Source: a virus. From it: a stretch of DNA of 64,000 bases. The notes beneath the pieces are model-generated. The model saw only the letters and a program-made list of their open reading frames with translations, was not told the DNA's origin and made no database searches. The translations under genes and the position numbers were made by a program. Location of the stretch: the IMG/VR virus record IMGVR_UViG_3300020204_000006; one strand, given 5' to 3'. This document shows, one piece after another, positions 1 through 50,800 of this stretch. Within the stretch, counting starts at the first letter, position 1, and each line of letters starts with the position of its first letter.

Positions 1-3000
1 TCCGATATCGAAAATTATTTTAAATCTAAATTTAATATAGGTTCAGATTTTAAAGGAACATTTAATAACAACAGGCTTTACTACATATCATCAGATTTTA
101 GTTTTAATAGTTTCTTGCCAGTTTTTGGCAATTTACGTTTTGATGATGATTTATTAAATCCAAATTCTCTTCTTGAGTATTCTAGTTTTAATGCTGGTTT
201 TTCTTCTCCCTTAAATGATGTTTCTGGTATTTATAGGCTAGAAGACTATAATCATTCGGGTAGCAATATAGTATACGAAGTTATAAAAAATTTAAATATA
301 GATGCACCTAAATCGGATCTTTATGAATTTTCTTTATTTTTGATATTTGAAAAGAAAACAGTTTTAGTAAGAAATCAAGAGACATTAGAAGATTACTGCT
401 ACAGAGTTGGAGGTGCATTGCCAGGTTCAAGTAGCAGTAGCAGTATAGGCAGCATCAGTAGTAGTAGCAGCAGTAGTAGTAGTTCTTTTGTTCCTCTTCC
501 ATGCATTGATGGTAATTCACCAGGTGGCTGTATGGATTTAGATGGAGATGGATTTATTGGCGGAGGCGATTTGGGCGTTTTGCTTGGTAATTGGAATAAT
601 CCCGGAAATGGTGATTTGGATGGTGATGGCGCAGTAGGCGGTAGTGATCTTGGAATTCTTCTTGGTAATTGGGGTAGATGTGTTGAGTGTCAGTCTTCAT
701 CTTCCTCATCTGGGGACATTTCTTCTTCAAGTTCTAGTAGTAGCGGGACTGGTCCAGGTACCTTATGTTCTTTTATAGAGGTTGAGGCTGGTGAAAAGAT
801 CACTGGAGCCATAAAAAGTGATGGTACGCTTGTTATATGGGGAGATGTGAATAGTGAAGTTATAACTTCTTTGCCGTCTTCTCTTCCTCAAATAACTAAA
901 ATTTCATTTGGAACTGCCCAAAGTAATGCTCATGCGGTGGCAATTTCATCTGATGGTTCAGCATTATGCTGGGGAAATAATTCACAAGGAGAATGCAACG
1001 TACCAGGTGATCTAGGAAATGTTATTTCTGTTTCTGCTGGTGCAAATCATACTTGTGCTGTAAAAGAAAATGGCGATGTTGTTTGTTGGGGCTTTAATAA
1101 TTCTGGTCAAACAAATGTTCCATCCGGTCTTAGTGGCGTTTCTAAAATTCACTCTCATGCTTCTCATAATATTGCCCTTAAAACAGATGGTACTGTATCT
1201 TGCTGGGGTTCTAATTTGCATGGTCAATGCAATGTTCCATCTGGTCTCGATGATGTAATAGAAATTTCCACTGGTAGTGGCCATTGCGTTGCGCTTAAGC
1301 GAGATGGAACTGTTGTTTGTTGGGGTTTAAATTCAAGTGGTCAGTGCAACGTTCCCTCTTTTGATGGATTGTCTGCAATCGCTATATCTGCTGGCGGTAG
1401 CTTTACCTCTGCTGTCCTGTTAGACGGAACAGTTGTTTCTTGGGGTATGAACACTTTTGGTCAAACTGATGTTCCATCTGGAATGGGATTTGTTATTAAA
1501 ATAGAATCAGGAGATGATCATACTGTAGTTCTTTTTTCTAATAATACGGTTTCTTGCTGGGGCAGGAATGATAAAAATCAATGTGATGTTCCAGATTCAT
1601 GCTTGACTCAAACTGAAATATCTAGATCTCTATCTATTAATCAATGTGATTCTTACATTGAGGGCCATGCAGAAAATGTATATTCTGGAAGATACAAAAT
1701 AGGGATTATAACAAGATCAAAGTCTTTGCCAACATTGTCTAGGGATTTGTATCCAGGTGGAACAGAGCTTCACATTTTTGATAAAATTTTTGAAAACAAA
1801 GGTTCAAATAGGATATCTATAGATGTTAATTACAGAAAGCTTGTTATTGAAGAAATGGAGCACTTGCTTTCAATAAGTAGTAAGGAAATTTTCTTCACAA
1901 ATCCATTAAAAGAAATCGACGAAAAGTATCCAAGGTTTATAAGAAATATAAGAGTTTTTTCTGACGGAGATATAGCTGGCTCCGTAACAAGATTTGCTAA
2001 TATAGAGGATAAAAGAAGACAATTTGACGCCTTCTTCGGTTCTTGCTCTAGAAGTCAAGATATACCATCTTATCTTGGCGTTCATATGATGAACGAGAAT
2101 ATAATTTTGGAACAGTCAAATATAAGAATAGGTAAACTTTCATATAAGCCTAATTCCAATATTACTCTTGATCCAAGGATATATGATTTTGAGAATATGC
2201 AATCTGTTGGGCTTTTGGAAACCCTGTCAAGAAATGAAAGTTTTGAATTTACAACTGAAGATCCCGGTGATTTTTACAATGTTTCTGAAATGTCTAGTTC
2301 TGTAGATGAGTGGTTTTCAGATAGATCTGGCTTTACTCATGTGGGTTCATATCTTGACGGTAAGCACGGCAGTAAATCAATAATTCTTCAGGACAACATT
2401 GATAGTATATCATCTGCAAATCCTGTTTTGCAAAATGACTCATATCATGCAAAGACATATTCTGAAATAAGAAACTATCAATTATCTTCTGGTTATAATG
2501 GTAAAATTTCACAAAATCTTGGTAGATCTGATTCAAGTGATTATACTTTCTTGGTTGATGCTGCAGTTATAGCGCCAAATCAGTTTATTAAAACGTATAG
2601 AACAATTGGACTTTTGAATGATGGAGTTATAAAATTTAATAACGTCTATTCTAAAAAATCAACATTTGATCAAAACAATAAGACTCTACAGTATGATACT
2701 TTAAAATTTTATTTTGAATCATCTTCTGCTCAAGATTATAGTCTTTTTAATCTTTCTTACCCGGCTAAGGCTGTACTGGACTCTGGAAATGAATATTTAG
2801 TGTATATAGACAACAATCATATCGCTAGATTTGTAAATTATCGCATGTCTATACCCCCAGATATCCAATTAAGAAAAGTTGCTGGTGCTACTCTCACCGT
2901 ACCTAGCAGTGACACAGGCACAACTTTCACCTTTCCTAGCAGTAGCAGTAGCAGTAGTAGTAGTAGTGATTCTTCTAGTAGTAGTAGTGATTCTTCTAGT

Positions 3001-6000
3001 AGTAGTAGTGAATCTAGCAGTAGTAGTAGTGAATCTAGCAGTAGTAGTAGTGAATCTAGCAGTAGTAGTAGTGAATCTAGCAGTAGTAGTAGTGAATCTA
3101 GCAGTAGTAGTAGTGAATCTAGCAGTAGTAGCCAGTCAAGTAGTAGCAGTCAGTCCAGCAGTTCTAGCAACTCCAGCAGTAGTAGCCAGTCAAGTAGTAG
3201 CAGTCAGTCCAGCAGTAGCAGCCAGTCCAGTAGTAGTAGTCAGTCAAGTAGTAGCAGTCAGTCCAGCAGTAGCAGCGGTTCCAGCAGCAGCAGCAGCGGT
3301 TCCAGCAGCAGCAGCGATTCCAGCAGTAGCAGTGGTTCCAGCAGCAGCAGCAGCGGTTCCAGCAGCAGCAGCGGTTCCAGCAGTAGCAGCGGTTCCAGCA
3401 GCAGCAGCGGTTCCAGCAGTAGCAGCGGTTCCAGCAGTAGCAGCAGCGGTTCCAGCAGCAGCAGCGATTCCAGCAGCAGCAGCGATTCCAGCAGTAGTAG
3501 CAGTTCCAGCAGTTCTAGTAGTTATTTTGAAGATATGCCTTTTGGAAATACGAAAGTTTTGATGGTTGCTTCTGGTATCGGTTTTGTAGTCGCTATTGAC
3601 GAAAATTATAAATTAATAGGAAACTATGATCCTGGTCTTGCTAGTGCACAAATTCAGTCTGACATTAATACTATTAATGCATTGTATACAAGTGATGACG
3701 ATGCAATATACGCAGAATACGTATCTGCTGGATCTGATTTCTTTGCAATTAAAACATTAAATGGATACTGCGAGGTTTATGGAAATACTTATTCTTCCTC
3801 TCTACTTCCACCTTCTGGACTTAAAATCATAACATTTTCTTGTGGAGGTGATTTTATAGTTGCGATTAGTAGTACCGGTTCATTGGAAGCTTGGGGAAAT
3901 GATAGCAATATAAATAACAATGTCCCATCTGGTTTGTTTACGTCAGTTTCTTGTGGGTCTTCTCACGCATTAGCTATAGACGTTGATGGTTCTGTGTATG
4001 CATGGGGCGACAACTCTTTTAACCAATCTAATGTTCCATCAGGATTAAAAGCCGTTGAAATTTCTGCTGGTTCAAAGTTCTCATTTGCAATAGATTCTGA
4101 ATTTAAAGTTGTTTATTGGGGAGAAATTGATTTTCAGTATAATTCTGGGACCATACCTACCTTTGCTTGTTCTGTTTGGTGCAGAAACGATACTGTTTTA
4201 ATAGGCGGATTTGCAAATGAATGGAACCTTTTTACCGATATTTCTACGCACAAATATGAATCGTTTTTGTATTATTTGATAGAGCATCCTATTAGATATA
4301 GAAGTAATTCTGATATATGGGCTCCTGGTCCAGTTATAGATCTTTTTAGGCTTTATGATTCTAATGCATCAGTTGAGACAAATCTTAATAGATATTGTAG
4401 GTTGTTAGGATACAAAGACAATATTTGTTCTAGTGATTTTAAGATAAATGATCCATTAGTGCTATCGCAAATACCTGTTTCTGTTTCTGCAAACTCTTTA
4501 TCAAAGAATATAGATGCAAAAAGATTTGAAGAGGATAGAATAGGGCTATGCTATCAGTCAAATATAAAAAATTATAGATCGGACATATATTATAGGGGCT
4601 ACCTAAACCATTTTTCTATATTTGGAAAAAATTATTATCTTTCAAAAGATATTCAAAATCAAATATCTTCTTTCGAACCTTCAATTGGAAATGACTACTA
4701 TGGAAATTCTATAGTAGCATGGAGATCTCAAGATTCTACAGCTTCAAAAGAAAACAATTACATATACTCTTCTTTTATATATAATGGATCTTCTGACATT
4801 AACAAATGCCTTCTTGATGAAATGCTTTATAAGTTAAAAGATTTCTTTATTTACGATCCATACGATCCATATTCATTTAAAATATTGCCGCAAGTTTGTG
4901 AGGTTGAATTTACTTTTAAGGCACCAGCTTCTAATACATTTAATTTCTTTGTAGATTTTTATTATGACGATGAATTTAAGAATAAGGCTTATTCTTATTC
5001 CTCTTCTGTAGATCCTTCTATTTGGTCTGTTGATGGAGTAAATGCATATGCTGATGGCCATTATGCTCAAGCTGGTGATGAATTACTTGTAAGATTCCAT
5101 GCTTCTGATATTGAAGAATTGTCAAATAAAGTTTTATTTGTTAAAATAGGTTTTAATTCTCAGTCTTCATCACTCAAACATGGCCTTGTCTCTCAAAATA
5201 ATAATGAAATTAAGGACCCACTTGCTGTTTCATCAGATATATCTGGAAATAATCCAAATTTAAATTCAAACTCTAAGATTTGGGTAATGCCAGAAATTAT
5301 ATCTTCTGATATAAATTTGCCAAAACAGGAATTTATAAATTACAAGTCAGAAGATGGCATACTGAGATTTAATTTTTATGATAATAGCAGGTCGTCATTA
5401 GATGGCATTTCAATAGGAGAAACAGCTAAATCTTTTTATGTCCATATACAAAGAGGTAGTGGGAACTCTGAATTCTCAGATTTTGTTTTACGTTTTGGTG
5501 GCACTGTATCCTATGTTGGTTTTACCAAAGAAGATTTAGATATATCTTCTTCTTACTCAATTGGTGAAGGTGTTGCATATCCTCAATCAAATTCATCAGT
5601 TTCTAATGGACTGGTAGATGGAGAATTTATATCTATAGATTCTTCAGGAAGAAAAATAATGTTTAGGTTAAAAACAAAACAAAATGGTCTCAGATCTTTA
5701 AGAGTCGTAATTAAGGAGAATAAATTTATTTCCGGCAATTTTAATTCTGTATTTTTATGCAACTCAAAAGAATCAGCAGAATGTATTACTCAAATTCCTT
5801 TTATAAATAAAACTTCAAATTCTTCTTTATTTAAAATTAAAATGGATATTTATTCAGACGAGGATTGCCTAAATTACGTTGGATCTTTTGATTCAAGTGT
5901 AAACGTAAATTGCTTTACAAATGGGATAATGGGATATTATCAGTGTCCTTCTAAAAATATTATATACGTTAACTTTATTCCTCCCGTTATGGAATACATA

Positions 6001-7740: not shown

Positions 7741-7782
7741 GTTCATGTATTTTTTTTGTAATTATACTCTAATGGAGATATT

Positions 7783-30226: not shown

Positions 30227-30242
30227 TTTGTAACTTTTATGA

Positions 30243-30665: not shown

Positions 30666-30721
30666 AATATAACTACAAGTTATTATTTTGTTATTTTTGT
30701 ATGGACGATACATAGTTTAAG

Positions 30722-30729
30722 TATAAATA
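30722..30729 (+). promoter_or_regulatory. TATAAATA, T4-type late-promoter-like element upstream of ORF9
   Basis: Exact octamer in the AT-rich intergenic gap 30666-30777; chance occurrence is plausible at this AT content. Confidence 0.35.
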
Positions 30730-30777
30730 TCGTTTTTAACAGGTTAATGTTAAATTTTTATATAATAAAAATATAAA

Positions 30778-33700
30778 ATGTCAGTACTGTGCCGTCCAGA
30801 TGGTTCAATATCTTTTTCTGTTTCTGAGTCACTACTAAATACTAGTTTGACTCAAGGCGATATTATTATATTTAATAATAGGCCAGAAGGTCTTGAATTT
30901 ATCAAAGAATATGATTGTGACGGATTTTTAGAATCTAATTTTTTAAATTTATTGTCCAGCATAAATATTAGTGCCATAATAAAAGAAATTCATTTTGATT
31001 CCAATCATTTAGAAGTTATATTTATATCTGGCTTGGAAAAAGTTTCCTCTTTGTTGGGAATTAATAATTTATCTTTTTTCTGTCCAAGATTAAACCATGT
31101 TTATTATCTTTCTTCTACTTTGAAAGAAACATGTTTTTTGTCTTCTCGTAATAATATATGGGAAAAAAGATCAATATACGGCTCTCCGATATCTCCAAAT
31201 TTTAAAGTAGGAAGTGGCAAATACAATTTTGACAACTGCAACTTTTATTCTTTTGGATTTGAGAGTCACGAAAATCAATCAAAATCACATAACAATAAAT
31301 ATGTTCTTATATCAAATCAGCATGTCGTATATTCTTCTTTGGATCCTATTTCTTTTTTAGACGGGAATTTGTTTAAAGATCAATTTACTTGTGAATATGA
31401 TGAAATATACAGTAATTCTAAAAGAGAAAATATATTAAAAAAGGGAATTTACTTTGGTCAGTTTGTGTTTCCTTTTGAGGAATATTCTGATTCAAATATA
31501 AGAAGTTTCTTAAACCATATAAAAAAATATCAACCGTCTTTATATCAAAATGTTTACGATAACAATACTACTTTATCTGACAGGATTGATTTTTTCAAAA
31601 AACTTTTTGCTCCTAAAATTGTAAAGTTTTATTCTCCTAAGCTTAAAAGATACATAACAAGAAAAATTGTTATGTCTTTACCAGCTGAAAATTATTATAG
31701 AGAAAAATATGGGATTGATCATGGCATTTCTGGAGTTTGCGTTGGCCTTCTTGACAATCCTATAAGTATTTATGAAACTGGTATTAAACCAGTTGCCTTC
31801 CACTCTGAAGAATCTTCTTATCTAAACTTTTCTGAAAACAGAGAAGTATTTTACTTTGACAATCATTTGCGTTTAAGTTTTGCTGTGCCATCGAATAATT
31901 TTGGTGTATTCAAAACAAAAAATGATATGTCTTTAATGAAATCAAAGTATGTTGACATGTATGACGAATTTGGTTCATCTTATTTTGGTGAACTTGATAT
32001 TGGCAATATTGTCATGTGCAAGGGCAAATCACAGTCTATTATCATCGGACTATGCAATGGTATTGAAAATTTTCAAGGAATTAAAGGCGTTAAGTCTAAC
32101 GAAATTTGCGTAAATTTTGGTTCTGATGTAAAAGTTAAAGAATTTTTTGGTAATGCTTTTAAAGTTCCCAATAGGGCTGATCCTTTTATTTTGTATGGAA
32201 AATCATCATATGGAGACGCTTCTTCAAAATTTGATTTTTATAGAGAGTCGTATCTTGAATGTAAAAATTACAATATATTCAATCAAGAATATATGTATAA
32301 TTTTTTAAGCGATTTTGATTATTGGAAAATTAATTCTATATCTGAAATATGGGATAGAGCTTTTGATATTCCAAATGTACATATGGAAACAGATGTAATG
32401 GAATACTCAACTGGTTCTAGATCTCCGGTTACTCAAAGGTCTTCTAGTGTAGATACTGCATCTGATGAAAATTATGCTTCTATTTCTCATGGGTATTCTA
32501 ATGTTATATTTTATACTACTAGAGATGGAACCGTAAAATACATAGCTGGTTATAATGCTAATCCAGCTTTGCCAGAATCTGAAAGAAATGTTATAGGTGC
32601 TGGAATAAGAAATATTACTCCATTTTCAAGCCCATACGGAAGCTTTCTTGCAGGTCAAGGTGGTGTTGATTTAACTCCTCCATCTGACTTGCCTAAATGC
32701 AAACAGGTTGTCACTGGTTATAGAAACGCTCATGCTCTTACCGTAAATGATTCCATAGTTAGCTGGGACGGCACTCCCCACCAGCAGTGGAAAAAAACTT
32801 CTGAAGTTTTTATGCAGCAGCTTAGGTACTATCAGCAGCCAGGTAGAAGGCTTGAGGGAGTAAAGATAAAAAAAATATCTCCAGGTGCAGGCTTTGTCGC
32901 TGTTTTACTTACTAATGGTGAGGTAATAACCTACGGAGCTAACGAGAGTGCCCAAATGAGTGATGTTGATACTGTTCTTACTCCCATCGGTATTATTCCT
33001 CTCCCTGTTAGGGGAGACAATTTTTATATTAAAAGATGGAAAGCATATAAAACATGGAAGTATGGAGAGAATTTATCAACCTATCTAGATCCTCTTTCTT
33101 CTCCAAATTCTTGTGTAACTCAACAGGAAATAGACGAGGAAGCTAATGATGATTTTCCCGATACTGATTCTGGTACAAATTCTAATTGGAGACTTTATAG
33201 ATCCGCTGCTCTTGGATGTGAGCAGCACGAAGGATCTGGTGCAATAGCAGATTCTCCTTATATAAACGGTTCCAATATTTATCCTCCGCCTCCTGTTAGT
33301 TGGTCTGGTTTTCTTGACTGGTCTAAATTTACTGGTGCTCCAAATGATTATCAGTTCTCTAGGTCTACGACTGGAGACGTATCTAGTGTTAATTTTAGTT
33401 TTGGTGCTTCTTGGACTAGGAATTCAGATAGAATACCAATGACTGTTGTGTACCCATGCACTACAGACCCTGACGGAGAATGTAGCTATATTTCAAATGG
33501 ATATCAAAGACCCCAGGGTCATCCACTAGAAAGCGATAGACCCCCCAATTCTTTATTCGGTTTTTCTGGCAATAGATATAGAGATGTTGCCTGCAGCAGG
33601 ACTAGCATTATCCTTATGACTGAAAATGGTAATCTTGAATCATGGGGTATGAATTTTTACTATAATGTAACTGGCAGTGGTCGTCAGTTTGGGGCCTTTA

Positions 33701-36700
33701 GGAGGATGGGTAGCGGCATCCCAGGAGGAAACTCAAATGATGCAGGCTGGTCTACTCCAGGCCATCCTAGGCCTTTCCCTGATGCCCCTTGGGGCGACAA
33801 TAGCGCGGTTGAAGTCAAACGTCTCAAAACAACACCTGAATCATTGTTGGGGATAGGTACTGGGTATTATATAAGTATTGTTATAAGGAGAGATGGATCT
33901 ATATTTGCATGGGATAGAAATGAATGGGGAGAGTCTCTTCCTCGTAGTAATTCTGATGGTACTCCCGGTCTTCCAAGTGGAATATTTAAGCAAGTTGATG
34001 GTGGATATCATCATTCTATTGCTCTACGTGAAGACGGAACTGTAGTTTGTTGGGGAGAAAACAACGATGGAGAATGCGATGTCCCATCTATTCTAAAAAA
34101 TCCTATTACTTCAAAATGTGTTTGGGTTTGCGCTTTATCAAGAATGTCTTTTGCCTTAAGAGACAATGGAGATTTAATAGGTTGGGGAAATACTGATGAG
34201 GCTGCTATGGGATTCAAGGGCTTTACGTCTGGTTCTGTTTTTAATCCAGGAGAACCAATATTACTTACGTTTGCAGATTCTTCTTCAAGTTCTTCCTCTT
34301 CCTCTTCTTCCTCTTCTGTTTCTAGTAGTAGCAGTAGTAGTTCTGATTTGGCAGAAGGTTATATTGTTACTTCTAGTTTGCCCGGAAGAGATGCAACATT
34401 AGCTGAATTAAACATTATAATACCTAGTTTGGTGCAAAACAACATAAAATACAGTCATACTTTGTATGGCAGCGATGTCGATTCTTCATCTTGGCTTGGT
34501 AGTGACCCGCTGTGCTGCGACGTTAATCTTACTATTTTTGGTCAAAAGGTTCAAGAGCACATAAGTTCTTGGAGTTCTATAAATACTGAATATAATTTTT
34601 ATTATGGAAATCCTGAATATGTAGTTTTGAACATGCTCCACACACTTGGAGTGCCAGTTGAGCTTCAAGAAATTTTACCAATAGAGGAAGATATAACTAG
34701 CGGTAGAGGTTTAAGAGCATTTAATATGCTTACTGGATTGCTTGATACTACAAAATCTGTTTTGCCTCAATCGAGTGTTTCTCAGTATTCCTATCCTTTT
34801 CTCCCTTATTTTTTCTTGCCACGTCCTGACGGTGGTGACGCGTGCACTTGGTCTTCAAGATGGGCTGGTCTTTCACTGGAAGATTATGAAAATGAAAAAG
34901 ATAGATTGTTAAACCTACTAAAAAACAAAGTTGCTTCTTTTGCTCCTCATACTGATATAATAACGACAGCTCATTATGCAACCTATAGCGAAAGGAGAGC
35001 TGTTTTCTTTCCTGGAATAGAGGCCTCTACTTTTGAATGGGTTCTTAATAATTGCAGATCTATAATTGAAGCATCGCAGGGGAAGCCTGTTAATGTGTAC
35101 GTAAGTCCTGTGATATTTCCAGGAAGTGAGTATACTTTGGAATCTGTTAGACAGAGTAATTTCACTCTTCCTTTGTCTCAATTAAAATCTAATATTGAGG
35201 CATTGCCAAAGCTTGTTGTTTCTACTCCATACATGGAAAGAGTTATATTTAAACCAATGAGGCAGGCCGGAGTAAAAAGAATGCATATGTGGATGGAATG
35301 GAGATACACTCATAATATTGCAAGGCTTTTGCCATCTGGATCTTCTACTTTCGGCATAACGGATGCTGATATATATCTTTCAAGAAAAATGATTAATGAT
35401 TTGTTTATTGATCAGAATTTTAGGTCTCCTATAGACCTTAGTGATGACTCTTTGTGGAACTCTCCCTCTACCAGAGAAGAAGTTATACGTTCAGCTTTGT
35501 CTAAAGATATAGAGATGGCCAATTCATTTAGGTCTGATGGTGTTGATGGAAATGAAAATGCAGTTTGGGCTTATTGTTGGAATGCACCTGATTCTACTGA
35601 TGTAAATAAATTCGAAAGAGTTAAGCCAATGATTTGGGTTTCAGGTGGTCAGAGATATGACATAGATCCAAGACCTACTATCGGAGAACTTTCAGTCGTT
35701 GTTTCTAGATTGAATCAGTTGCCTCCTGGAAAAAGAACGTTGGGGCTAATGAGGTACAATTCATCTGCTATTTGGAATAATCCTTCCGATTTCTTGCTTG
35801 GGCAATTTAAGAGCCCTTGGCCAGATAATGAGCTTGAAAATATGAAAAATGATTGGCAATCTATACTTGGCGATCTAAAGTCGTTGAACGCTCCTATAGA
35901 TTTTGTTTCTATTGACAATGAAGGAAAGTTTTCTGCTGGTCCAGCATGGTATGACCCCGCCAATTCTACAAATCTTTCTTGGATTGAGGCCATAAAGAAT
36001 GATTTAAGGTATAATCAATCGTGGAAAGGCTTTTCCAGCCTATCTAGTAAAATATCTCCTTTCAATATAGACCAAATATTTACTTTTGGATCAACTGATG
36101 ATTATATTGGTTATTGGAGGGGTCTTGGTCATCTTGGAGCTGCAGCATTAAATTATGCCATATGGGATCCACTAACTGCCATTTATCCTAATGTTGGTGG
36201 CAGTAATTATCAGGGAAATTTTGTTTTATATGGTGATAGTTTTCCTGATACGAATGGTCATGAGTTTGCTTATGATAACATATTTGGAACTTCTTCAAGC
36301 CCCGCATTATATGGTTCTTGGAAAAATACTCCTCCTCCATCCGGTCCTGGATCAAGAGTAATTAGTCCATCTGATCCAACTCATATTATTAGGTGGAACG
36401 GATCTGATCCTCAAACTCCGTCTTCTCCTTGGTTCGCGTTTTTGATAGATATTCAGGCCGTCAGGGCTTGCAAAAGAAGCAATGAACAGTTGCAGGATGA
36501 ACCGGATATAGAACCTTGGATAGCCTCTGTCTCATGGTCCGGTGATACCGCTTATAATTATGAATACAAAAACAACAAGTCTTACTATTATGAAATGATT
36601 AGACATGCAGTTTTAAATGGGGCTCAAAGATTTGCCGTATGGAATCCTTTTGAATCTTCATCCACAAATAGCGGATTTTTAGATGACGTTTTAAGGGACA

Positions 36701-38844
36701 TAAATATTAAAATACTTTCAGCCACAAAGAATGTCACGATTACTGACAGAATAAGCTATCTTTCTAAATATTTGATATCTGGAGTAAGAAGACAAGATGG
36801 AGATTATATATGGAGAATAACTCCAAAGCCAGGGGTTAATTTGACAATATCCGGAGGGACTGAGCTTTTTGATACTTCTTCTAACGGCGGTTTTGCAAAT
36901 GTCGGCAGATGGTTTTTGACATCTAGCTCATCTCCTCCTTCGGTTTTTGTAGATTCTAGTAGTTCTAGCTCATCTAGCAGCAGCAGCGGTTCCAGCAGTA
37001 GCAGTAACTCCAGCAGTAGCAGTCAGTCCAGCAGTAGCAGCGGTTCCAGCAGTAGTAGCGGTTCCAGCAGTAGTAGCGGTTCCAGCAGTAGTAGCGGTTC
37101 CAGCAGTAGTAGCGGTTCCAGCAGTAGTAGCGGTTCCAGCAGTAGTAGCGGTTCCAGCAGTAGTAGCGGTTCCAGCAGTAGTGGCAGTTCCAGCAGTAGT
37201 AGCAGCAGTCGTTCTAGTAGTTCTAGCTCATCTAGTAGCAGCAGTCGTTCCAGTAGTAGCAGTAATTCAAGCAGTAGTAGCAATTCCAGCAGCAGTAGCT
37301 TGTTGAGTAGTTCAAGTTCGACAAGCAGTAGTTCAAGTAGTTCATTGTATATGGAATATGACCCGTATTCCGGACCTCAGCCAAGAATCACGGTGGTGCA
37401 AATTGAATCTAGTGAGCCCTCTTTTGTAAACGAAGAATTTGGAATAAATTATTTTAAGGGTGTTTTTGGTGGAGCTGTTTATGATTCTGTTGAAATTAAT
37501 TTTAGAGATATTGTAAAAGTAATGGCAAAAGCAGATTCTATAAACGGTATTATTAAATTTATTGGAAATACTAAATTTGCCAAATACGACAAATTAACTA
37601 TTTCTCTTTCTAGTGTTTCTCATAATAATTCAGGAGATGTTGATCATATAACTATAGAAGATTCTTTTGAGGGGGTAAATGCGGGATTACCATCTTTATT
37701 GAGTAGGGTTGTTCATTCTAATATAAATTTATCTTCAGCTTTCATAGTATCATCTGAATTTGGTAGTGACTTTGAGGGCTTCCAGTCTTTCATAGTTTCA
37801 AATAATGATCCCAATAAAATAAGTTATGATACCTCTGATTTCAATAAAAAACAACTATTTTCTTCATCTGAATTTAGTGTAAATGAAAACTTTATTAACT
37901 CTATGTTGTTTGATGAAGAGCAAAATTCTGTTCTTCTTGGTGGTAAATTTGGCGTTTACAAATTCTCCTTGGACTCTAAGTATTTGGTGTATGATGTTAG
38001 GTTTATGGGTTCTGTAGACTGCATAAATATATTGCAAACTTCAGTTGAAATAATTGCTGTTTGTTCTGGTGGAATATATGTTTACAGTAAATATAGCAAC
38101 TCAAGTTATGTAATAAGTCTTATGGGTTTTCCGTTTAAGATTTTTGGTGGATTTATAACATCTAAAAATGATCTTGCTGTATTGACTTCTGGTGGAATAT
38201 TTATAAAAAATAAAGATGCCAATCAGATAATTCCTGTCCTACAGGATATAGTTTCTAGTTCAAGTTCTTCTGGTCAGAGTTCTAGCTCTTCTAACTCCTC
38301 AAGTTCTAGTTCTTATAGTAATTTTGTTTCTTTTTACAAAGGCATAGGATATCAAATTAATATGGCTTTTACTGATAAGAATTTGTATTACTCTGGACAA
38401 ATATCTCAATGGGCAAAATCGGAAGGTGTTCTTCCTTCAACTTCAATATCTGACGTTGTAATTTTTGGAAATAATTTATATATATGCACATCTTCTGGTT
38501 TGTATGTTAATAAGCTTTCTGAGATATTTACTCTGAATTTTAAAAAGGTTATTTTAGATGTTAATAACCAAAATTTAAGTATTAATGCATTAGGTGCTTC
38601 TTATTCATTTAATGATGAAGGTGCAAGGGTGGATCAATTAATGCTTGCTGGAGACGAAAAAGGGAAAATATACTCAATTGTTATAAATAATGATGAGCAG
38701 GTAACAAGTACTGTTCAAACAGAGTTTTCAGTTATTCATAAGGTATTAAGAGTGGAAGATGACTGGATTTTATCATCGTATAATCAATTTAAACTACTTA
38801 GTAACGATAAGATATATACCTTGTCTCTTGGGGTAGATGTTTAA
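30778..38844 (+). CDS. ORF9: 2,688-aa modular protein: inactive trypsin-like domain, RCC1 propeller with insertions, two glycosidase-like TIM-barrel domains, 130-aa poly-Ser linker, C-terminal beta-propeller
   Basis: LISNQHVVYSS / VGLLD / GDASS protease-fold motifs; RCC1 units (FKQVDGGYHHSIALREDGTVVCWGENNDGECDVP); DFVSIDNE and YYEMIRHAVLNGA motifs; NLYICTSSGLYV-type blades. Confidence 0.9.
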   Translation: MSVLCRPDGSISFSVSESLLNTSLTQGDIIIFNNRPEGLEFIKEYDCDGFLESNFLNLLSSINISAIIKEIHFDSNHLEVIFISGLEKVSSLLGINNLSFFCPRLNHVYYLSSTLKETCFLSSRNNIWEKRSIYGSPISPNFKVGSGKYNFDNCNFYSFGFESHENQSKSHNNKYVLISNQHVVYSSLDPISFLDGNLFKDQFTCEYDEIYSNSKRENILKKGIYFGQFVFPFEEYSDSNIRSFLNHIKKYQPSLYQNVYDNNTTLSDRIDFFKKLFAPKIVKFYSPKLKRYITRKIVMSLPAENYYREKYGIDHGISGVCVGLLDNPISIYETGIKPVAFHSEESSYLNFSENREVFYFDNHLRLSFAVPSNNFGVFKTKNDMSLMKSKYVDMYDEFGSSYFGELDIGNIVMCKGKSQSIIIGLCNGIENFQGIKGVKSNEICVNFGSDVKVKEFFGNAFKVPNRADPFILYGKSSYGDASSKFDFYRESYLECKNYNIFNQEYMYNFLSDFDYWKINSISEIWDRAFDIPNVHMETDVMEYSTGSRSPVTQRSSSVDTASDENYASISHGYSNVIFYTTRDGTVKYIAGYNANPALPESERNVIGAGIRNITPFSSPYGSFLAGQGGVDLTPPSDLPKCKQVVTGYRNAHALTVNDSIVSWDGTPHQQWKKTSEVFMQQLRYYQQPGRRLEGVKIKKISPGAGFVAVLLTNGEVITYGANESAQMSDVDTVLTPIGIIPLPVRGDNFYIKRWKAYKTWKYGENLSTYLDPLSSPNSCVTQQEIDEEANDDFPDTDSGTNSNWRLYRSAALGCEQHEGSGAIADSPYINGSNIYPPPPVSWSGFLDWSKFTGAPNDYQFSRSTTGDVSSVNFSFGASWTRNSDRIPMTVVYPCTTDPDGECSYISNGYQRPQGHPLESDRPPNSLFGFSGNRYRDVACSRTSIILMTENGNLESWGMNFYYNVTGSGRQFGAFRRMGSGIPGGNSNDAGWSTPGHPRPFPDAPWGDNSAVEVKRLKTTPESLLGIGTGYYISIVIRRDGSIFAWDRNEWGESLPRSNSDGTPGLPSGIFKQVDGGYHHSIALREDGTVVCWGENNDGECDVPSILKNPITSKCVWVCALSRMSFALRDNGDLIGWGNTDEAAMGFKGFTSGSVFNPGEPILLTFADSSSSSSSSSSSSSVSSSSSSSSDLAEGYIVTSSLPGRDATLAELNIIIPSLVQNNIKYSHTLYGSDVDSSSWLGSDPLCCDVNLTIFGQKVQEHISSWSSINTEYNFYYGNPEYVVLNMLHTLGVPVELQEILPIEEDITSGRGLRAFNMLTGLLDTTKSVLPQSSVSQYSYPFLPYFFLPRPDGGDACTWSSRWAGLSLEDYENEKDRLLNLLKNKVASFAPHTDIITTAHYATYSERRAVFFPGIEASTFEWVLNNCRSIIEASQGKPVNVYVSPVIFPGSEYTLESVRQSNFTLPLSQLKSNIEALPKLVVSTPYMERVIFKPMRQAGVKRMHMWMEWRYTHNIARLLPSGSSTFGITDADIYLSRKMINDLFIDQNFRSPIDLSDDSLWNSPSTREEVIRSALSKDIEMANSFRSDGVDGNENAVWAYCWNAPDSTDVNKFERVKPMIWVSGGQRYDIDPRPTIGELSVVVSRLNQLPPGKRTLGLMRYNSSAIWNNPSDFLLGQFKSPWPDNELENMKNDWQSILGDLKSLNAPIDFVSIDNEGKFSAGPAWYDPANSTNLSWIEAIKNDLRYNQSWKGFSSLSSKISPFNIDQIFTFGSTDDYIGYWRGLGHLGAAALNYAIWDPLTAIYPNVGGSNYQGNFVLYGDSFPDTNGHEFAYDNIFGTSSSPALYGSWKNTPPPSGPGSRVISPSDPTHIIRWNGSDPQTPSSPWFAFLIDIQAVRACKRSNEQLQDEPDIEPWIASVSWSGDTAYNYEYKNNKSYYYEMIRHAVLNGAQRFAVWNPFESSSTNSGFLDDVLRDINIKILSATKNVTITDRISYLSKYLISGVRRQDGDYIWRITPKPGVNLTISGGTELFDTSSNGGFANVGRWFLTSSSSPPSVFVDSSSSSSSSSSSGSSSSSNSSSSSQSSSSSGSSSSSGSSSSSGSSSSSGSSSSSGSSSSSGSSSSSGSSSSSGSSSSGSSSSSSSSRSSSSSSSSSSSRSSSSSNSSSSSNSSSSSLLSSSSSTSSSSSSSLYMEYDPYSGPQPRITVVQIESSEPSFVNEEFGINYFKGVFGGAVYDSVEINFRDIVKVMAKADSINGIIKFIGNTKFAKYDKLTISLSSVSHNNSGDVDHITIEDSFEGVNAGLPSLLSRVVHSNINLSSAFIVSSEFGSDFEGFQSFIVSNNDPNKISYDTSDFNKKQLFSSSEFSVNENFINSMLFDEEQNSVLLGGKFGVYKFSLDSKYLVYDVRFMGSVDCINILQTSVEIIAVCSGGIYVYSKYSNSSYVISLMGFPFKIFGGFITSKNDLAVLTSGGIFIKNKDANQIIPVLQDIVSSSSSSGQSSSSSNSSSSSSYSNFVSFYKGIGYQINMAFTDKNLYYSGQISQWAKSEGVLPSTSISDVVIFGNNLYICTSSGLYVNKLSEIFTLNFKKVILDVNNQNLSINALGASYSFNDEGARVDQLMLAGDEKGKIYSIVINNDEQVTSTVQTEFSVIHKVLRVEDDWILSSYNQFKLLSNDKIYTLSLGVDV
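36955..37344 (+). repeat. Poly-Ser linker array (130 aa) in ORF9 with seven perfect GGTTCCAGCAGTAGTAGC units (37042-37167)
   Basis: Direct reading of the sequence. Confidence 0.97.
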
Positions 38845-41800: not shown

Positions 41801-44800
41801 TGAAGCAAATTATCTTTTATATTACGATCAGGGTGTTTACGGGCTTAGAAACGGGTATGAAGATTTTAATTTTGACGGAGGATTTGTCAATTTAACTTCA
41901 TCTGGTTTTGGATATTCTCATGAATTAGGTGCTGATTTATTTAAGAATTTCTATTTCTCTTCTGTTAGCTCTTTATTTGATTCAAATAAAGGCATTATAT
42001 CTGATTTTATATTTTGGTATAAAAATATATCAGAGGATAAACATAAAAAATCATTTACTGATAATTTTATTTATGATTTAATCTTTTCTTATGATTTTAA
42101 TAGTGCATCTTATGATGAATTTGATAAGCCACAGATTGTATCAAATCTTGGTATATCTGAAAACGTAACAAGATACCAAATATTTGAATATCAAAAATAT
42201 ATTGTTCCCAAAATAGAAAGAATAATAAAAGAAAAATCACATGGAAAATATGTGATGAATTCTGGTGATTTTAGATTTGACTGTGGTTTAATAACAACAG
42301 AAAACACTGGCTCTAGAGATGATAATGGTTCTCAAGAATTTATGGTGAATTCTTTGAGGCAACTTACAGAAAGCACTCCTCATGTAAGTTCTTGGGACTC
42401 TTTTGGAAGAAATATTTCATCAATTGGTTCTACAGAATATTACGAGCCAATATTTTTACCTCAATTTTGGTTCGGCAAAAAAGATGGACTATATGATGTT
42501 GTTTTTGAAAGAACAAGAGATATAAGCATATTTAGTTCAAATTATTCTCTTAATAGGTTTGTAAATGATTCTTTACAGATGTATTCTTCTGACGCAAGTA
42601 TTATTACTTTTAAGGTTTTAGGTAAGGATGAAAATAGTGTTAGTCTTATCTCGGAAAAAGATCAGTATGGTTTTATCTTTGGTCTTGGTGTAAAATCAAT
42701 TTCTCTTATTATAGAATCTTACGAGGAGCAGGGTAGTCCAGTTAAAAGCCGCGATGGAGATGGAGAAGAATATGGACCACCAAGTTTTTCACCAGCAATT
42801 GAAAAATATTGGATATGTAATCTTTCAATTGAAATGAATTCCCAAGACTCTCAAAATGATTTTGAGAGAAAATTTGGTAAAATATTTTTTAATAAATTGA
42901 TGGGCAATCTTCATTCAGATGGACTAAAATTCTTCACAAGATGGAAAATAAATAAAAAAGGCGTAGTGTATCCATCTACTTTTCCTGTTAAGTCATTTAA
43001 TCCGTCGTCTTTGTATCACCTTTTAGAGCAAGACGATATTTCTATATTTGATGTAAACAGTAGATATAACGCAAGTATAAGTTTGTGGTCAAACTCTGAA
43101 ATTATGTTTGCGACTAACAGTTATACTTATTCTGCAAAATCTCTTTCCTCTCTTCCTCCGCTGTCTGGTGGAAGTGGTTACTATCCTGTATATAAAAACG
43201 GTCAGGAATTATATCAATTTAATTCAGACCATTCTGGTATAGAATTTATTTCAAATGCTTTAGACTCAAAGCATTACGAAGAACTTAAAAATCATTTTAG
43301 TATATTTGATTCAGAAAATAAAAATACTTTGATGGTTCGTTCTTATTACGGTCTTTTGCCCTTATGGATGTCTAAATATGGTCTTGACGATCCTCAGTTT
43401 AGATATAATACTAGATATAGTGACAAAAGTTTAGAGCTTTCTAGCAAGAACTCTCGTGAATATACTGGTTTTTTGATACATAGTAATTATGGTCGTGGAA
43501 CATCAGCTGCTCAAACTCCATACGAAAGTTATGAAGAATCCGTAGCCAGTCTGATGAAGGTTGCAAAAAATCTTAGTCCCAATAAAGTAATTGTACCATT
43601 TGTTTGTCCAAAAAGCATTGGACAGCACTATTTTATTTCTTGTCTATATCATCCAAAGGAATTTTGTTATTATCTGGTTAGGCCATGGTTTATAGGTAAT
43701 TACCGTGCAGACGCAGTTCACGTTTGGGATTCATATGTATATTATGTAAATTCTTGTTTTTACGATCTTTCTAATTACTCAGAGCCAGCTGGTTTTAGAA
43801 CTGGTATTGAAATGGCTATTTTTAATGGCAACATGCTTTCAATCGATGATGCATGGAATATAAATAACTCCTCATCTTTTGATTGGAACTCGGTTGAAAA
43901 AGGTGGAATGCTTTGGGATAATTACGGCGAAAAGGCTATGATTAATTTGGAATATACTTCTTTAAATGGAAATGATTCCTATTATGAAAAACCAAAAATA
44001 GTCATATTCATTAAAGAAGTAGTGTCGCTTTATTTAAAAGATCTTTACTCTGAGCTAAACAAGCTGCTTCAAAATCCTGAAATTTACGAAAGGCCATCTG
44101 ATAAGTCCATAGGTTATGATGTTCTCTCTTTCTTGAATGGGCTTCTTGTGTCTTGTCAAAATGAACTTAAAGTTGAAATAGTTGGTGGTGGATCTTACTC
44201 ATCTGAAAACTGGGTTGGTTATAAAATAGAATGGTACAAGTCGAAATCATACGTTGATAATCCATATGGTTTTGAGCTTATATACACGGAATCTGGTGCT
44301 GGATTTATTCAATATATATATGCTCCCAGGGCATTAACAGATCTTCTTGCCAATGGAGACGTAATAAAGGCAAAGTTGCATGTTAATACTGGCTACGGTT
44401 TAAATTCTTCATCTACATATGAATGCTCACTATATTTTGATTCCAAAGTTAATAACATAGGAAATTATTTTATACCTAGTTCTGTCGTTAACACAAGAGA
44501 AAAGAACATTTTAAAAATCGTAAATTCAGAACAAATAGCAATGCTTGTTGATCCCCCAAGCAGCTCAAGCAGTTCAAGTGGTTCATTTAACAATTCTTCT
44601 AGTTCTAGTTCTATTTCTTTATCTTCATCTTCTTCTAGCTTAAGTTCAAGTTCAAGTTCAAGTTCAAGTTCTTTGCTTTATATTCCTGGTGGTGATTTGC
44701 CAGAACCTTCTTCTTCTTTAGATTATGAGGTTTGGGCTGCGCATTTTACTGGAAACATGTTTGATGCAAATAATCCAGAATACGGAAGATTTGGTCATCC

Positions 44801-47800
44801 AAATTACAAGTTACTTTCCATAGTTCCTGGAATAAGTATTTTTGGAACCAATTATAATGGCCATAGAATGCCATCAGATACTAATTCTGCCTCCATAACA
44901 AGCGCTAATTTTCAACAATTTAAAAATGAAATAACCTCCGTACCATCAGGAAGAAGGGTGATGATTCCTTATTATTGGTTCCCTGATATTGGTTGCTATA
45001 CAAAACTGCACGATCAATATTATAGAAATACTTCCGATGGTGTAGTTTATGATGACGGCACAAGACAAGACAGAATATTAACTTGCTGGCTTGATAATAA
45101 TTCAAATGATTGCGCTGATTCTTTTAGGTCATTTTTACAAAGATGCATCAATGATGGATTTAATTTTGATTACATAATGAATGATCAGGAAACTCAAGAC
45201 AACTATTGGATAGATGGCAGAAACTCGTATCCAAATTGGCTTGATGATACAGATGGAGATGGATATAGAAACGATCCATCCCCGGGGATTGACAGCGCTG
45301 GATTTATGCACGATGCAAGACGTGTTTCGGCAATCATGTCTGATTCAAGATTTACCAGCTATGTCAATCCGTATACTGGTAAAACTTTTGCTCAAGAATT
45401 TATGGAAAATTACCAGGCTCTTAGAGTAAGGTCTGGATTATCTGAGGATTCAAGATCGTGGCAGGAAATTTTGGCTCCATTTGCTAACGCAAATTCCCCA
45501 ATGCATTTTAGGCCTTCTAGTTTCTATTGGCAAGCCTATGGCTGTTCCAATGGGTGCTCTCCTGACGGAATAACAATTAACGGTCTTGTTCATCCAGAGG
45601 GGTACAATCTTTTTTTCCATGCCTTGCCTGCTTGGCGTGCCGCCGCTGACTCTTGGCATTTTAATGTGTATTGGAAGAGATTTAGAGACGTGCTTGGTGA
45701 GTTTGCTGAGTTTTCAAATACAATTCACATGGAATATACTGCCTCTGCAATAAATTCTGAAGAAGCAAAATTTTTCCAACAAAGTAACCTCGAAATAAGT
45801 ATGCAGCCAGCTTTGGCTGATTCATGGACTGGTTCGAGCAGATACTATGCTGGATTTTTTAATATCATATTCCCTAATTGGGCTTTGCCTCCTGACGGAG
45901 AATATAATAATGCGAAAGAATATTGCAGCGGTTATGTTTTAACTCCGCAAAATGAAGATGAGTTGTTTAACTGGTGTGGATATTTAGTTCTGGATTACAA
46001 GGGGCCGTCTGGTGAATCTAATTTAATAAGGTATCCTGAAACTGATGTTTCTCCAAATGCCACCGGTTTTGATCAGTCTCTAGTTAAGAGATGGTATACT
46101 GAATACTGCTTTAAACATTTAGTTAATATTATAAAACTTGAAAGGGTGCATTTAAGAAGCGATCCCAATCATTGGGAAAAGTTTGTTCCCTGGATAGGAT
46201 ATCAGGGATATTTTCAGGCTCGTTGGTATAATGGCGATGTTGCGTATTATCATGAAATGATAAGACACACCATATTAAATGGCGCTAGGATTTTCCAAAT
46301 ATTTGAAAGCAATTATATACCAGATTCTTGCAGAATAATACATAAAATCCTTGACGAATGGAGATCTATAAGTGGAAATTCAAGAGCACAGCCATGTTCT
46401 AATGCATTTGGAGACGCATCTCAGCCTGTAGACAGGATGGTTCTTAAAGATGTATTTGAAAACGTATTAATAAGTGGAGGGAGACTTGTTGAACATCCAG
46501 ATTGGTATATTTGGAGAATATCTGTTGCTCCAAAGCACTTTAATTCTGATGGAATTTGTATTTTAAGAAAGCAGATTCAGGACCAGGATCTACCAGATAC
46601 AATTATTATAGATTCAAATACTTCAAGAAATAATGATGACTCGTCTAGAAGAGGAGTATGGGTTCAAAGAAATGTGCCTGGTATGCCTATTTATTCTGTT
46701 GCAACTTTTAGCTCTAGTTCATCCAGTAGTTCTAGCTCATCTAGTAGTAGCAGCGTATCTAGCTCCAGTTCGAGTAATTCAAGTAGTAGCAGTGTTTCAA
46801 GTAGCAGCAGTGTTTCTAGCAGTTCGATCAGTAGCAGTAGCAGTGAATCTAGTAGTAGCAGTGAATCTAGTAGTTCCAGCAATTCCAGCAGTAGCAGCAA
46901 TTCCAGCAGTAGCAGTGGTTCCAGCAGTAGCAGCGATTCCAGCAGTAGTAGCGATTCCAGCAGTAGCAGCAATTCCAGCAGTAGCAGCCAGTCCAGCAGT
47001 AGTAGCCAGTCCAGCAGTAGCAGCCAGTCCAGCAGTAGTAGTCAGTCCAGTAGTAGCAGTGGTTCCAGTAGTAGCAGCGGTTCCAGTAGTAGTAGCGATT
47101 CCAGCAGTAGCAGCAATTCCAGCAGTAGCAGTGGTTCCAGCAGTAGCAGCCAGTCCAGCAGTAGCAGCCAGTCCAGCAGTAGCAGTGATTCCAGTAGTAG
47201 CAGCGGTTCCAGCAGTAGCAGCCAGTCCAGCAGTAGCAGCGATTCCAGCAGTAGCAGCAATTCCAGCAGTAGCAGTAGCAGTGGTTCCAGCAGTAGCAGC
47301 CATTCCAGCAGTAGCAGTGGTTCCAGTAGTAGCAACTCTAGTAGTAGCAGTAGTTCTTGCTCTGCTCCTAATTGGCCAGATTTTGTGGCATATTCTTTCT
47401 CAAATATATTTCCTAATGCTCCTTCTGTCCAAGTTTGTTACGCTGATAATTACACCATATCCTACTCAACATCTGCTCAATATATTCTTCAGTATAGGGT
47501 TACAGGTTCACCTGTTCAGGAATGGACTGACCATATAGATAATCCTGGTAGTTATACTGATGTTCTTAGTACTCAAAGTATAAATGTTTCTAATCCTTTT
47601 GAATATCTAACTTTTGCATTAAGATCTACGTCTCCTGTCACTTCATCTACCTCTTTTGTAGTGCAGGTATCTATTTTAGATCCCGTAGAAATGACTGTTG
47701 AAGTTGTTGATTCTTTTACTGTTACTGTAGACAATTCTGGTAGTTCTTCATCTTCAAGTTCTTTATCCAGCAGTAGCAGCCAGTCCAGTAGTTCTAGCAA

Positions 47801-50800
47801 TTCCAGCAGCAGTAGTCATTCCAGCAGTAGCAGCCAGTCCAGCAGTAGTAGCGGTTCCAGCAGTAGCAGTCAGTCCAGCAGTAGCAGCAACTCCAGCAGT
47901 AGTAGTCAGTCCAGCAGTAGCAGTGGTTCCAGTAGTAGCAGTGGTTCCAGCAGTAGTAGTCAGTCCAGCAGTAGTAGTGAATCTAGTAGTTCCAGTAACT
48001 CCAGTAGTAGCAGCCAGTCCAGCAGTAGCAGCAACTCCAGCAGTAGCAGTGGTTCTAGTAGTAGCAGCAACTCCAGCAGTAGCAGCGGTTCCAGTAGCAG
48101 TAGCAACTCCAGCAGTAGCAGTCGGTCCAGCAGTAGCAGTGGTTCCAGTAGTAGTAGCCAATCAAGTAGTTCCAGTAACTCCAGTAGTAGCAGTCAGTCC
48201 AGCAGTTCTAGCAACTCCAGCAGTAGCAGTCGGTCCAGCAGTAGCAGCGGTTCCAGCAGTAGTAGTCAGTCCAGCAGTAGCAGTCGGTCCAGCAGTAGCA
48301 GCCAGTCCAGCAGTAGTAGTCAGTCCAGCAGTAGCAGCGGTTCTAGTAGTAGTAGTCAGTCCAGTAGTAGTAGTTTGTCTAGTAGTTCTTCTTCAAATAC
48401 TGATCCTCTTTTTGCGTACAGGTCTTTTGGTGGAGACCCAACCGATACGCAATGGACTAATAATTTTGCATTTAACGGGAATGTAAGTAAATCAGATTCT
48501 CAGCTTACATCAGATTATATAATTTCTTTTAATAGTACATCGCTGCCATTTGCGAGATCTTATGAAAGGTACGTACATGCTCTTGTAAAAAGTTGGTACA
48601 GAGGCGGTCAAACAAATACGACATATTTTAATTTGGCAGTAAAAATGATTCAAGCCTCTCTTAACTATAGGCCAAACATCACAGATGGAACTGGTAATTT
48701 ACCTGGTCAATTGAAGATTAATGAGGCATCAGAATTTGATCTTCACAACACTATAACTCTTGATGGTGCTAAATCTGCAATAAATTATCATTTAAGAGAT
48801 GCCTGCTTGCATTTTGCGCAGCTTGGAATACTAACTAGGAATGCATCTGCCATACGTAAAGCAAGTTCTATAATATCTGGTTTTGCTGATAAAATACGTG
48901 ACAATTGGCCAGTTTGGAACCCTTATTTTGGTGTTGGATTCGGAACCGGAAGATTGCCAAGTAGCCAAAATATTCCTGCTTCTTATCAATTGGAAAGTTC
49001 TTCTGGTATTTGGGGAGGATGGATTTATTACGATCTAAATCTTGCAATGCCACTTGTTCAAGCATGGTCTCTAATAAAAGACAATCCAAATTGCACTTCC
49101 GATAAAGATTGGGTTAAGTCTATGTTTAATCTTTTCTTGCAGTTCCAAACCTGGAGAAGACAGGCCGCTCCGCCTACTACCCCTTGGAGATCAAATGGCC
49201 AGCCTGATTATTCAAACCAAGATATGAGACTCATACAGGGCTATCTTGAATTTGGAATTTTACTTGAAGAGCCTGAGCTTGTTCACTATGGTGTTTGGTA
49301 TCTTAAAAATATTTACAGAGGTTTGTTTACTTCAGATGGTTGGTGGCACGAGGGAGCCCCAGCTTATCAGGATGACTTGCAAAGAGGTCTTAATTGGGCA
49401 ATAATGGATTTCCCTGGATGGGAAAATTCTACATATAGATATAGTGACCCACCAGGATTTATTGCTTCTGCAATTGATGGTACTAGATTTGACGACATCA
49501 ACTTATATGATTTGGTGAAAAGACAAACAGACAGGTCCAATCGGGTTTTCTCGCATATTCAACTGTTTAATGGATTCCCTCTTTGTAGAGGAGATTCTAA
49601 TTGGAATCAGGCAGATTCAATTCAAGTAAGAAATACTCTTACTATAGAAGACAGCCAGATTATATATCCTGCTTCGTCTAAGCTTTTTGGCACTGGATGT
49701 TTAGCAATTTTAGGAAATGAAAAAGGAAGTAGTTCTCAAAAGGATATTGGCACTATAGTAAGTCTTGAATATGGTTCTGCCCAAACTCACAGTCATGCAG
49801 ACTCTCTTCATTTAAATGTTTTTTCCAAGAATCAAGAAGTAATGAGCGAAACTCAATACAGACCTGTTTCTGGAGATACAATATCAAGTAGAGCTTGGCA
49901 CTCTTGTACTGCATCTCATAATACTGTTGTTGTCAATCAGATTAGTCAAAATACAACTGGCTCTTTTGGTGACAATAGAAGAACTAAAAACGCTCTTGAC
50001 GAAATTAATGGCATGCCCGATTGGGCATGGAGATTCTATAGCGGACAAAGAACTACTAATTATGGCAAATTGAGACTATATAATAAAGATTATTCTAAAG
50101 TCAAGGTCATGGAAGTAGATGCGGAAAAGTCGTATAATGCAGTTGTATCTCCCATGACTAAATACAGAAGAACTGTCTCTCTTGTTGAGATAGATACAGA
50201 AGACAATTATATAGTTGATATATTTAGAGTTTCTGGTGGGACACAGCATGATTACATGTTGCACAGCTGCTTACAGACAGACTATTCTGCAACAATTAGT
50301 GCAGGTGTAATGCCATCTTCTGTTAGCGGTCAATTATTTCCATCGGGAACCGCTGAAAATGGCATGGATCGTATTAACAAGAGTGAATCATTCTTGACTA
50401 GCAATAATTGGAATGTAGAGTTCTTGCCATCTGCTTCATCTGAAAACTGGAAACAATATACATATATGATTGGTCAGTCTGGTTCAGAAATAATAAAGTG
50501 TACCGCACCAAGTATGAGAATTGCAAACCAGACAAGGCCATTTATTTGCGTAAGACGCACTGCATCAGAAAGTGTATTTGTAGCAGTTCATCATGCAGTT
50601 AAAAAATCAAATTCAAGTAAAATATCAAGCATACAGTCTTTGCCGAGTACAAATCCTAATGTGATTGCTTTAAAAATTAATTTGACAAATGGTAGAAGTG
50701 ATACTGTAATATCTGGAGAGGGTCCAACCGATAGCGCTTTAATAGATACTAAAATACAATTTACTGGTTCATTCGCTCACGTTGCAGAGCATTCTAATTC

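Follow-up and report, generated by a model that had tools for sequence, protein, structure and literature searches.

The stretch analysed was the IMG/VR virus record IMGVR_UViG_3300020204_000006 (64,000 nucleotides, one strand, 5' to 3'), referred to over its whole length as the window. It was found to contain 11 plus-strand open reading frames (ORFs), seven of which encode proteins of 1,220-4,950 amino acids. Three of the giant phage proteins (ORF1, ORF9 and ORF10; 2,700-4,950 residues) contained four long serine-rich arrays, A1 to A4, which are the subject of this analysis.

The serine arrays and their codon template

Array A1 (2938-3522, plus strand) was found in ORF1 at amino acids 980-1174 and comprised 195 codons, 86% of them serine. 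ORF9 contained A2 (36955-37344, plus strand; amino acids 2060-2189; 130 codons, 85% serine). Two arrays were present in ORF10, namely A3 (46710-47357, plus strand; amino acids 2623-2838; 216 codons, 85% serine) followed by A4 (47736-48395, plus strand; amino acids 2965-3184; 220 codons, 84% serine), the latter just ahead of the first heparinase II/III-like module. A preliminary description of the same DNA had reported arrays at these places, built on one six-codon template. All four were confirmed, in frame with the giant plus-strand ORFs, and were found to follow X-TCY-AGY-AGT-AGY-AGY, nearly all units being X-S5.

In the pooled units, the first serine position was occupied by TCC (85) or TCT (20), followed by AGC (81) or AGT (32) at the second position, AGT (102) or AGC (13) at the third and a mix of AGC and AGT at the fourth and fifth. 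The interior spacers were G (35), Q (27), N (19), D (10), E (9), R (5) and H (2). The glutamine spacer was written as CAG 26 times and as CAA once, the glycine spacer as GGT 34 times and as GGC once, and the arginine spacer as CGG or CGT; of the roughly 20,000 codons lying beyond the tracts, only 3 were CGG. A1 was composed of three blocks, in which 21-nucleotide D/E-S6 units were followed by Q-S5 units and then by 18-nucleotide G/D-S5 units. The units of A2 were mostly GGT TCC AGC AGT AGT AGC.

Outside the tracts, serine was encoded by TCT (1182), TCA (573), AGT (443), AGC (132), TCC (125) and TCG (83), so that AGC and TCC each accounted for about 5% of the serine codons. The arrays are thus made of codons that are rare in this genome, because serine elsewhere is written mainly as TCT or TCA. 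The guanine plus cytosine (GC) content of the arrays was 50.5%, against 30-38% for the genome.

Further ORFs of 168-301 amino acids (2879-3562, 46633-47538, 46797-47303 on the minus strand, and 47923-48486) were listed within the arrays, in alternative frames or antisense. They are by-products of the repeats and do not merit annotation as genes. The predicted DNA folding of the A2 run was not unusual (z -1.8 and -1.3), and hairpin-driven instability was rejected on these values.

Sequence shared between the arrays

The preliminary description had also pointed to a 44-nucleotide identity between A1 and A4, and had read the agreement of serine codons as a sign of common origin or gene conversion. 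The identity was found to be exact at 3139-3182 and 48183-48226. A recurring 20-nucleotide serine leader was likewise exact, at 36958, 37216 (earlier given as 37217) and 46725.

When the array peptides were held fixed and codons were drawn from genome usage (n = 500), the longest identity between arrays was 22.5 +/- 2.7 nucleotides, with a maximum of 38 nucleotides over the six pairs. When position-specific codon frequencies were retained, 44 nucleotides in the A1-A4 pair corresponded to p of about 0.025, and with units or template retained the pairwise p was about 0.02 for A1-A4 and for A1-A2. When the order of units was shuffled within each array, an identity of at least 44 nucleotides was found in some pair in 21.5% of shuffles, and the count of shared 30-mers was unremarkable (p = 0.18). 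The shared template is far beyond chance, and the template is the signal. The 44-mer is not independent evidence, because a shared unit inventory yields such identities often. The argument for common origin was thus sustained by the template and gained little from the 44-mer; reproduction of the identity by shuffling, which had been named beforehand as a reason to discount it, was observed once the shared template was allowed for.

The 20-mer leader was present twice in A2 and once in A3. It is not template-like, and by a rough estimate from codon frequencies the codon usage of the genome would be unlikely to produce it.

Modules on either side of the arrays

In ORF10, an N-terminal part was followed by a serine tract of mixed TCN and AGY codons (44547..44696, plus strand), which forms the N-terminal boundary of module A (44697..46679, plus strand; amino acids 1952-2612). 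Module A was followed by A3, a 126-residue stretch (47358..47735, plus strand) containing a module of about 112 residues (M_B), A4, and two PF07940 heparinase II/III-like lyase modules (48417..53693, plus strand) split by a short serine tract (51213-51254, plus strand). After ORF10 was cut into modules, the heparinase II/III-like matches were obtained with E-values of 7e-8 (above the Pfam cut-off) and 1e-4 (22.2 bits against a cut-off of 24). ORF1 and ORF9 contained RCC1 propellers and modules without an assigned family.

Module A gave no match in Pfam and no sequence match in PDB. Within it, amino acids 2388-2563 of ORF10 matched amino acids 1864-2018 of ORF9 at 28% identity, which places distant paralogues just upstream of A3 and A2. 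Relatives of module A at 29-54% identity were found in four proteins, P0255 (2,903 residues), P0256 (2,913), P0257 (1,512) and P0258 (1,959). Module A was the C-terminal module in all four, and the proteins ended no more than about 4 residues from where A3 starts. The similarity began at ORF10 amino acids 1952-1956, right after the preceding serine tract, and module A was always joined at an LDYEVW boundary; the N-terminal parts of these proteins (860-2,250 residues) had no match in the window. In the IMG/VR loci L005 and L007-L010, module A was found as a stand-alone ORF of 719-782 amino acids, which makes nine relatives in all that stop about 4 residues or fewer from the A3 start. Module A was seen to be widespread in uncultured viruses (loci L005-L010 and P0255-P0258), either as a stand-alone protein of about 750 residues or C-terminal to unrelated N-terminal parts.

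A HMMER search with the 700 residues after A4 against 1.84 billion representatives recovered 930 proteins, the best being stand-alone proteins of about 830-915 residues. One lyase homologue (P0105) was found to start about 28 residues past the end of A4. In IMG/VR the lyase module had no close relative, and no serine tract of at least 15 residues was found in the homologues of module A or of the post-A4 lyase module. The single-sequence model of M_B was all-beta with low confidence (predicted local distance difference test score of 47), too poor for a fold search.

As judged from these alignments, the arrays and serine tracts sit exactly at the joints of units that occur as separate proteins elsewhere. 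A polyserine linker is recognised by its position between independently folding modules and by a serine content of at least about 80%. The flanking units were found to stand alone or to be terminal in relatives, and serine made up 84-86% of all four arrays.

The preliminary description had proposed that the phase-matched arrays act as homologous crossover cassettes, by which modules are joined or swapped in frame to give host-range variation. The position of the arrays speaks for this proposal, since they are placed exactly where the architecture differs from that of distant relatives. Frame, period and DNA template are common to all arrays, and M_B is flanked by two of them in the manner of a cassette. 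Against it, module A in the distant relatives follows any of four N-terminal parts or stands alone, and serine tracts are missing in either case. The arrays do mark the joints specific to this lineage.

Array turnover in close relatives

Four relatives were examined, of which L003, L004 and P0004 (82-94% amino acid identity) bear arrays and P0007 does not. In the metagenome scan, L003 showed 92.8% nucleotide identity over 12.8 kb and L004 showed 82% amino acid identity in the lyase. The order A3, M_B, A4, lyase was retained in L004, with M_B conserved, and the order A4, lyase was retained in L003. The arrays of both relatives contained the same codon template with an entirely different spacer order and with 36-nucleotide higher-order repeats of their own. 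A4 comprised 220 residues in the window versus 168 in L004; in L003 its length was about the same and the spacers differed. In 300-nucleotide bins, the identity between the window and L003 was 90-97% in the flanks and 74-80% inside A4, and the match between the orthologous A4 arrays was no better than that between any two arrays.

P0004 (94% identity to ORF9) was collinear with ORF9. In the alignment its A2 comprised 72 residues versus 132 in the window, a difference that accounts for the whole 60-residue length gap between the two proteins; two TCN-coded tracts held their length. Fast in-place turnover at a fixed position was therefore observed.

In P0007 (52-65% identity to ORF1), the modules flanking A1 were directly adjacent, with no array between them. 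P0007 also lacked amino acids 136-548 of ORF1 (window 409-1650), which contain a serine tract, dockerin-like loops, a second serine tract and an RCC1 propeller. At the N-terminal edge of this dockerin and RCC1 block lies a short AGY-coded serine tract with an 18-nucleotide period (409..504, plus strand), and the alignment identifies amino acids 136-548 as a clean module indel that has an AGY-type serine tract at its N-terminal edge.

The swapping of modules through the arrays was not borne out in the four relatives examined. The same modules were found on both sides in L003, L004 and P0004, no breakpoint was seen inside an array, and module order was kept in every array-bearing relative (L003 and L004 at A3/A4; P0004 at A2). 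In P0007 the modules around A1 adjoin one another with no array in between. A 44-mer is to be expected when units are shared, and no evidence connects the arrays with host range. Because the arrays are all direct repeats on a single strand, one crossover in the genome would be predicted to remove 0.4-45 kb of the giant genes. What stood of the crossover proposal was the shared DNA origin and the position at boundaries of differing architecture; the swaps, with breakpoints inside the arrays, were not found. As an explanation of the arrays, the proposal is considered improbable.

Amino acid identity shifted across some arrays, from 93.9% before A2 to 97.8% after it in P0004, and from 68.5% in M_B to 82.7% in the lyase in L004. 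On the available alignments these shifts are not separable from differing constraints on the modules.

The L003 contig was found to begin at the edge of A4 and the L004 contig inside A3, and in a further viral contig, L013, the match to the template lay at bases 15-83. Assembly breaks at the serine arrays, and the array lengths read from such contigs are minimum values. These contig ends would also be expected if the arrays, or their similarity, had arisen by collapse or mis-joining of low-complexity reads. Such an artefact is the least probable of the explanations considered here, given that arrays recur in frame at equivalent positions in three assemblies made independently from other samples and that conserved modules run on in frame on both sides.

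Targeting by a diversity-generating retroelement was rejected as a source of the spacer changes. No reverse transcriptase family was found in any ORF of the window, and the changes were not confined to adenine positions.

Occurrence of the template in databases

The strict three-unit template gave no match in 185,579 prokaryote genomes. Among 2.9 million viral contigs it was found in two (L001 and L002), which were related to each other and not to this phage. Both are low-GC phage contigs and contained homopolymeric, AGT/AGC-rich polyserine lacking hexad spacers. The looser, four-unit form of the template was found in one viral contig (L013) and in one contig of a metagenome-assembled genome (62% GC); no serine tract was present in any long ORF of these two contigs and no similarity to the window proteins was found. 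A host-derived template was rejected on the absence of the strict form from the prokaryote genomes and on the unrelatedness of the loose match in the metagenome-assembled genome. Absence of the template elsewhere is weak evidence, as this phage itself seems to be missing from the collections.

A separate origin of AGY-rich serine runs at each joint, by a bias in triplet-repeat expansion combined with selection for the hexad, would find a precedent in the fact that (AGC)n is a CAG/CTG-type triplet and in the AGT/AGC-rich polyserine of the two low-GC contigs. Several observations argue against such convergence: the phase-specific codons (TCY for the first serine, AGT for the third) that the four arrays share with those of the relatives, the rarity of the template, the loose form of which was confined to two unrelated contigs, and the ordinary hairpin potential of the DNA. 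Convergence clearly does not commonly yield this template, and such an origin is regarded as very unlikely.

Origin and role of the arrays

The arrays are probably hyper-extended polyserine linkers at module joints, derived from one 18-nucleotide minisatellite family and evolving by slippage in place. They would serve as flexible, hydrophilic tethers between the autonomous modules of giant multi-enzyme phage proteins, a function that we infer from their composition and position. All four would have been written by one family of in-frame 18-nucleotide units, descended from a single founder that was seeded at several module joints within the near lineage of the phage. A single founder is the simplest account because phase-specific rare codons are shared. 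Each array would then turn over quickly by replication slippage, or by unequal exchange among its own units, with changes in unit number and spacer order and amplification of local higher-order repeats of 36 or 54 nucleotides. Point mutations in the spacer codons would give rise to the variety of G, N, D, Q, E, R and H, and the serine frame and template would survive because new units copy old ones.

Several points weigh against this account. The disordered state of the tether is suggested by composition only, the single founder is itself a deduction, and the A1 difference, for want of an outgroup, may be either a gain here or a loss in P0007. The interiors of arrays may be mis-ordered or collapsed in short-read metagenome assemblies, and some of the spacer turnover seen in L003 and L004 could stem from assembly errors. 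A2 and A3 share the 20-mer leader at 100% identity, and the modules upstream of them are only 28% identical; such identity implies some inter-array transfer, which pure in-place turnover does not give and which the crossover proposal would accommodate. The shared leader suggests at least one transfer of DNA between arrays.

A stronger role for the minisatellite is doubtful. It would be a lineage-specific, phase-locked 'universal joint'. Its copies, seeded at gene ends, would allow separate enzyme genes, whether neighbours or imports, to be fused into polyproteins of several thousand residues through homologous or slipped-strand joining inside the repeat, with an occasional exchange of modules, the resulting stalks being possibly glycosylated by the phage's own nonulosonate machinery. 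If this were so, the arrays would be a cause of the giant-protein architecture and not only linkers, and if they also mediated fusions they would offer a mechanism for the rapid accretion of enzymatic modules on virions.

Glycosylation may also be considered as an addition to the linker reading, with which it is compatible. The X-S5 arrays would then form mucin-like stalks carrying O-linked glycans, added by glycosyltransferases of the phage itself with the use of its CMP-nonulosonate pathway. The restriction of interior spacers to polar or small residues is consistent with such stalks. The papers on bacterial polyserine linkers, in contrast, call the significance of the linker unknown (PMC2386152, PMC2699552). 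The addition is viewed as unlikely.

Regarded as polyserine linkers that evolve in place, the arrays would explain how proteins of 2,700-4,950 residues are built, namely as strings of elsewhere-separate units tied by serine tethers. A practical rule for annotation, folding and expression follows, by which such proteins are cut into modules at the serine tracts. Array lengths and unit orders in short-read phage assemblies should be treated as unreliable, and contigs tend to break at the arrays.

Other serine tracts and features of the window

ORF9 contained a TCN-coded serine tract (34255..34368, plus strand) between the RCC1 propeller and the module A paralogue, and a mainly TCN-coded tract (38236..38337, plus strand) in its C-terminal part. 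ORF11 contained a further TCN-coded tract (60066..60164, plus strand). The preliminary description had stated that short tracts at 34279-34317 and 60094-60141 use mainly TCN codons, and this was found to be correct, with TCN in 14 of 21 serine codons over 34255-34368 and in 15 of 16 over 60066-60164. The first ORF9 tract was of nearly equal length in P0004 (24 versus 22 residues), the second was identical in P0004, and the ORF11 tract aligned to L003 without gaps. One genome thus contains two classes of serine tract, the stable TCN-coded tracts and the hypervariable AGY minisatellites.

The GC content across the window was 28-42%, and no tRNA was found in a search of it. The Pfam matches included RCC1 propellers in ORF1 and ORF9, Fn3 in ORF6, and Laminin-G, Kelch and vWA in ORF11. 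The window proteins gave just two weak matches in PHROGs, and no DNA or protein match was found between the window and the INPHARED phages. All-against-all BLAST of the window proteins revealed old paralogy only, the RCC1 blades being alike at about 30%.

The end of ORF8 (26564-30226) was observed to contain a 12-nucleotide tandem repeat of about 20 copies at 29928-30168. Its product comprised about 100 residues of nearly pure proline with SPPP periods, closing with GGGGYGYY, and this C-terminal proline tract is a second kind of low-complexity segment in the window. A non-coding gap of about 550 nucleotides between ORF8 and ORF9 (30227-30777) was the only sizeable one in the 64-kb block, and the GC skew was seen to go negative in the 30001-32000 bin, where the gap falls. 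The gap may be a transcription unit boundary.

Comparison with known systems

The serine-rich repeat proteins (SRRPs) of Gram-positive bacteria (Fap1, GspB, SraP) contain hundreds of serine-rich short repeats, which form an extended, heavily O-glycosylated stalk presenting a binding module. Their repeats are of the SX dipeptide type, and the proteins require SecA2/Y2 export with a glycosylation locus and an LPXTG anchor. The phage arrays resemble them in being serine-rich repeats and differ in having X-S5 hexads instead of SX dipeptide-type units. No SRRP export, glycosylation or anchor family was found among the general Pfam matches of the window, with no search aimed at such loci.

In-frame minisatellites and contingency-type repeats in surface protein genes change their unit number by slippage with the frame intact, and orthologous arrays lose positional homology fast. 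The phage arrays were similar in the in-frame change of unit number and in the loss of positional homology. They differ from contingency-type repeats in encoding a featureless linker and not an antigenic or binding repeat, with no on/off switching.

The cellulases EngXCA and CbhA of Xylella fastidiosa and Xanthomonas albilineans contain linkers of glycine and serine with 100-150 residues, whose presence varies among orthologues and whose length differs between Xylella strains (146 versus 106 residues) (PMC2810307). These are secreted enzymes with one linker per protein, and a DNA template shared among genes was not reported for them (PMC2810307). The absence of A1 in P0007 and the differences in length of A2 and A4 parallel this variation.

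Polyserine linkers are found in the modular carbohydrate-active enzymes of Saccharophagus degradans, Teredinibacter turnerae and Cellvibrio japonicus, with an average of 39-44 residues and 80-83% serine (PMC2386152, PMC2699552). Two linkers can flank one small module, as in the order CBM2/PSL/CBM10/PSL/GH5, PSL being a polyserine linker (PMC2386152, PMC2699552). Like these linkers, which join polysaccharide lyases or hydrolases to small binding-type modules, the phage arrays are interdomain and contain about 80-85% serine; they may also join a putative polysaccharide lyase to a small module, and the order A3, M_B, A4, heparinase-like lyase in ORF10 parallels the two-linker layout around a small module. 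Unlike them, the phage arrays comprise 130-220 residues, three to five times longer, and follow a strict X-S5 hexad from one 18-nucleotide minisatellite with genome-atypical codons. They also lie in far larger proteins of 2,700-4,950 amino acids, whose partners are not all carbohydrate enzymes (RCC1 propellers, dockerin). On the linker reading, polyserine linkers would be extended from a few bacterial polysaccharide degraders to phages.

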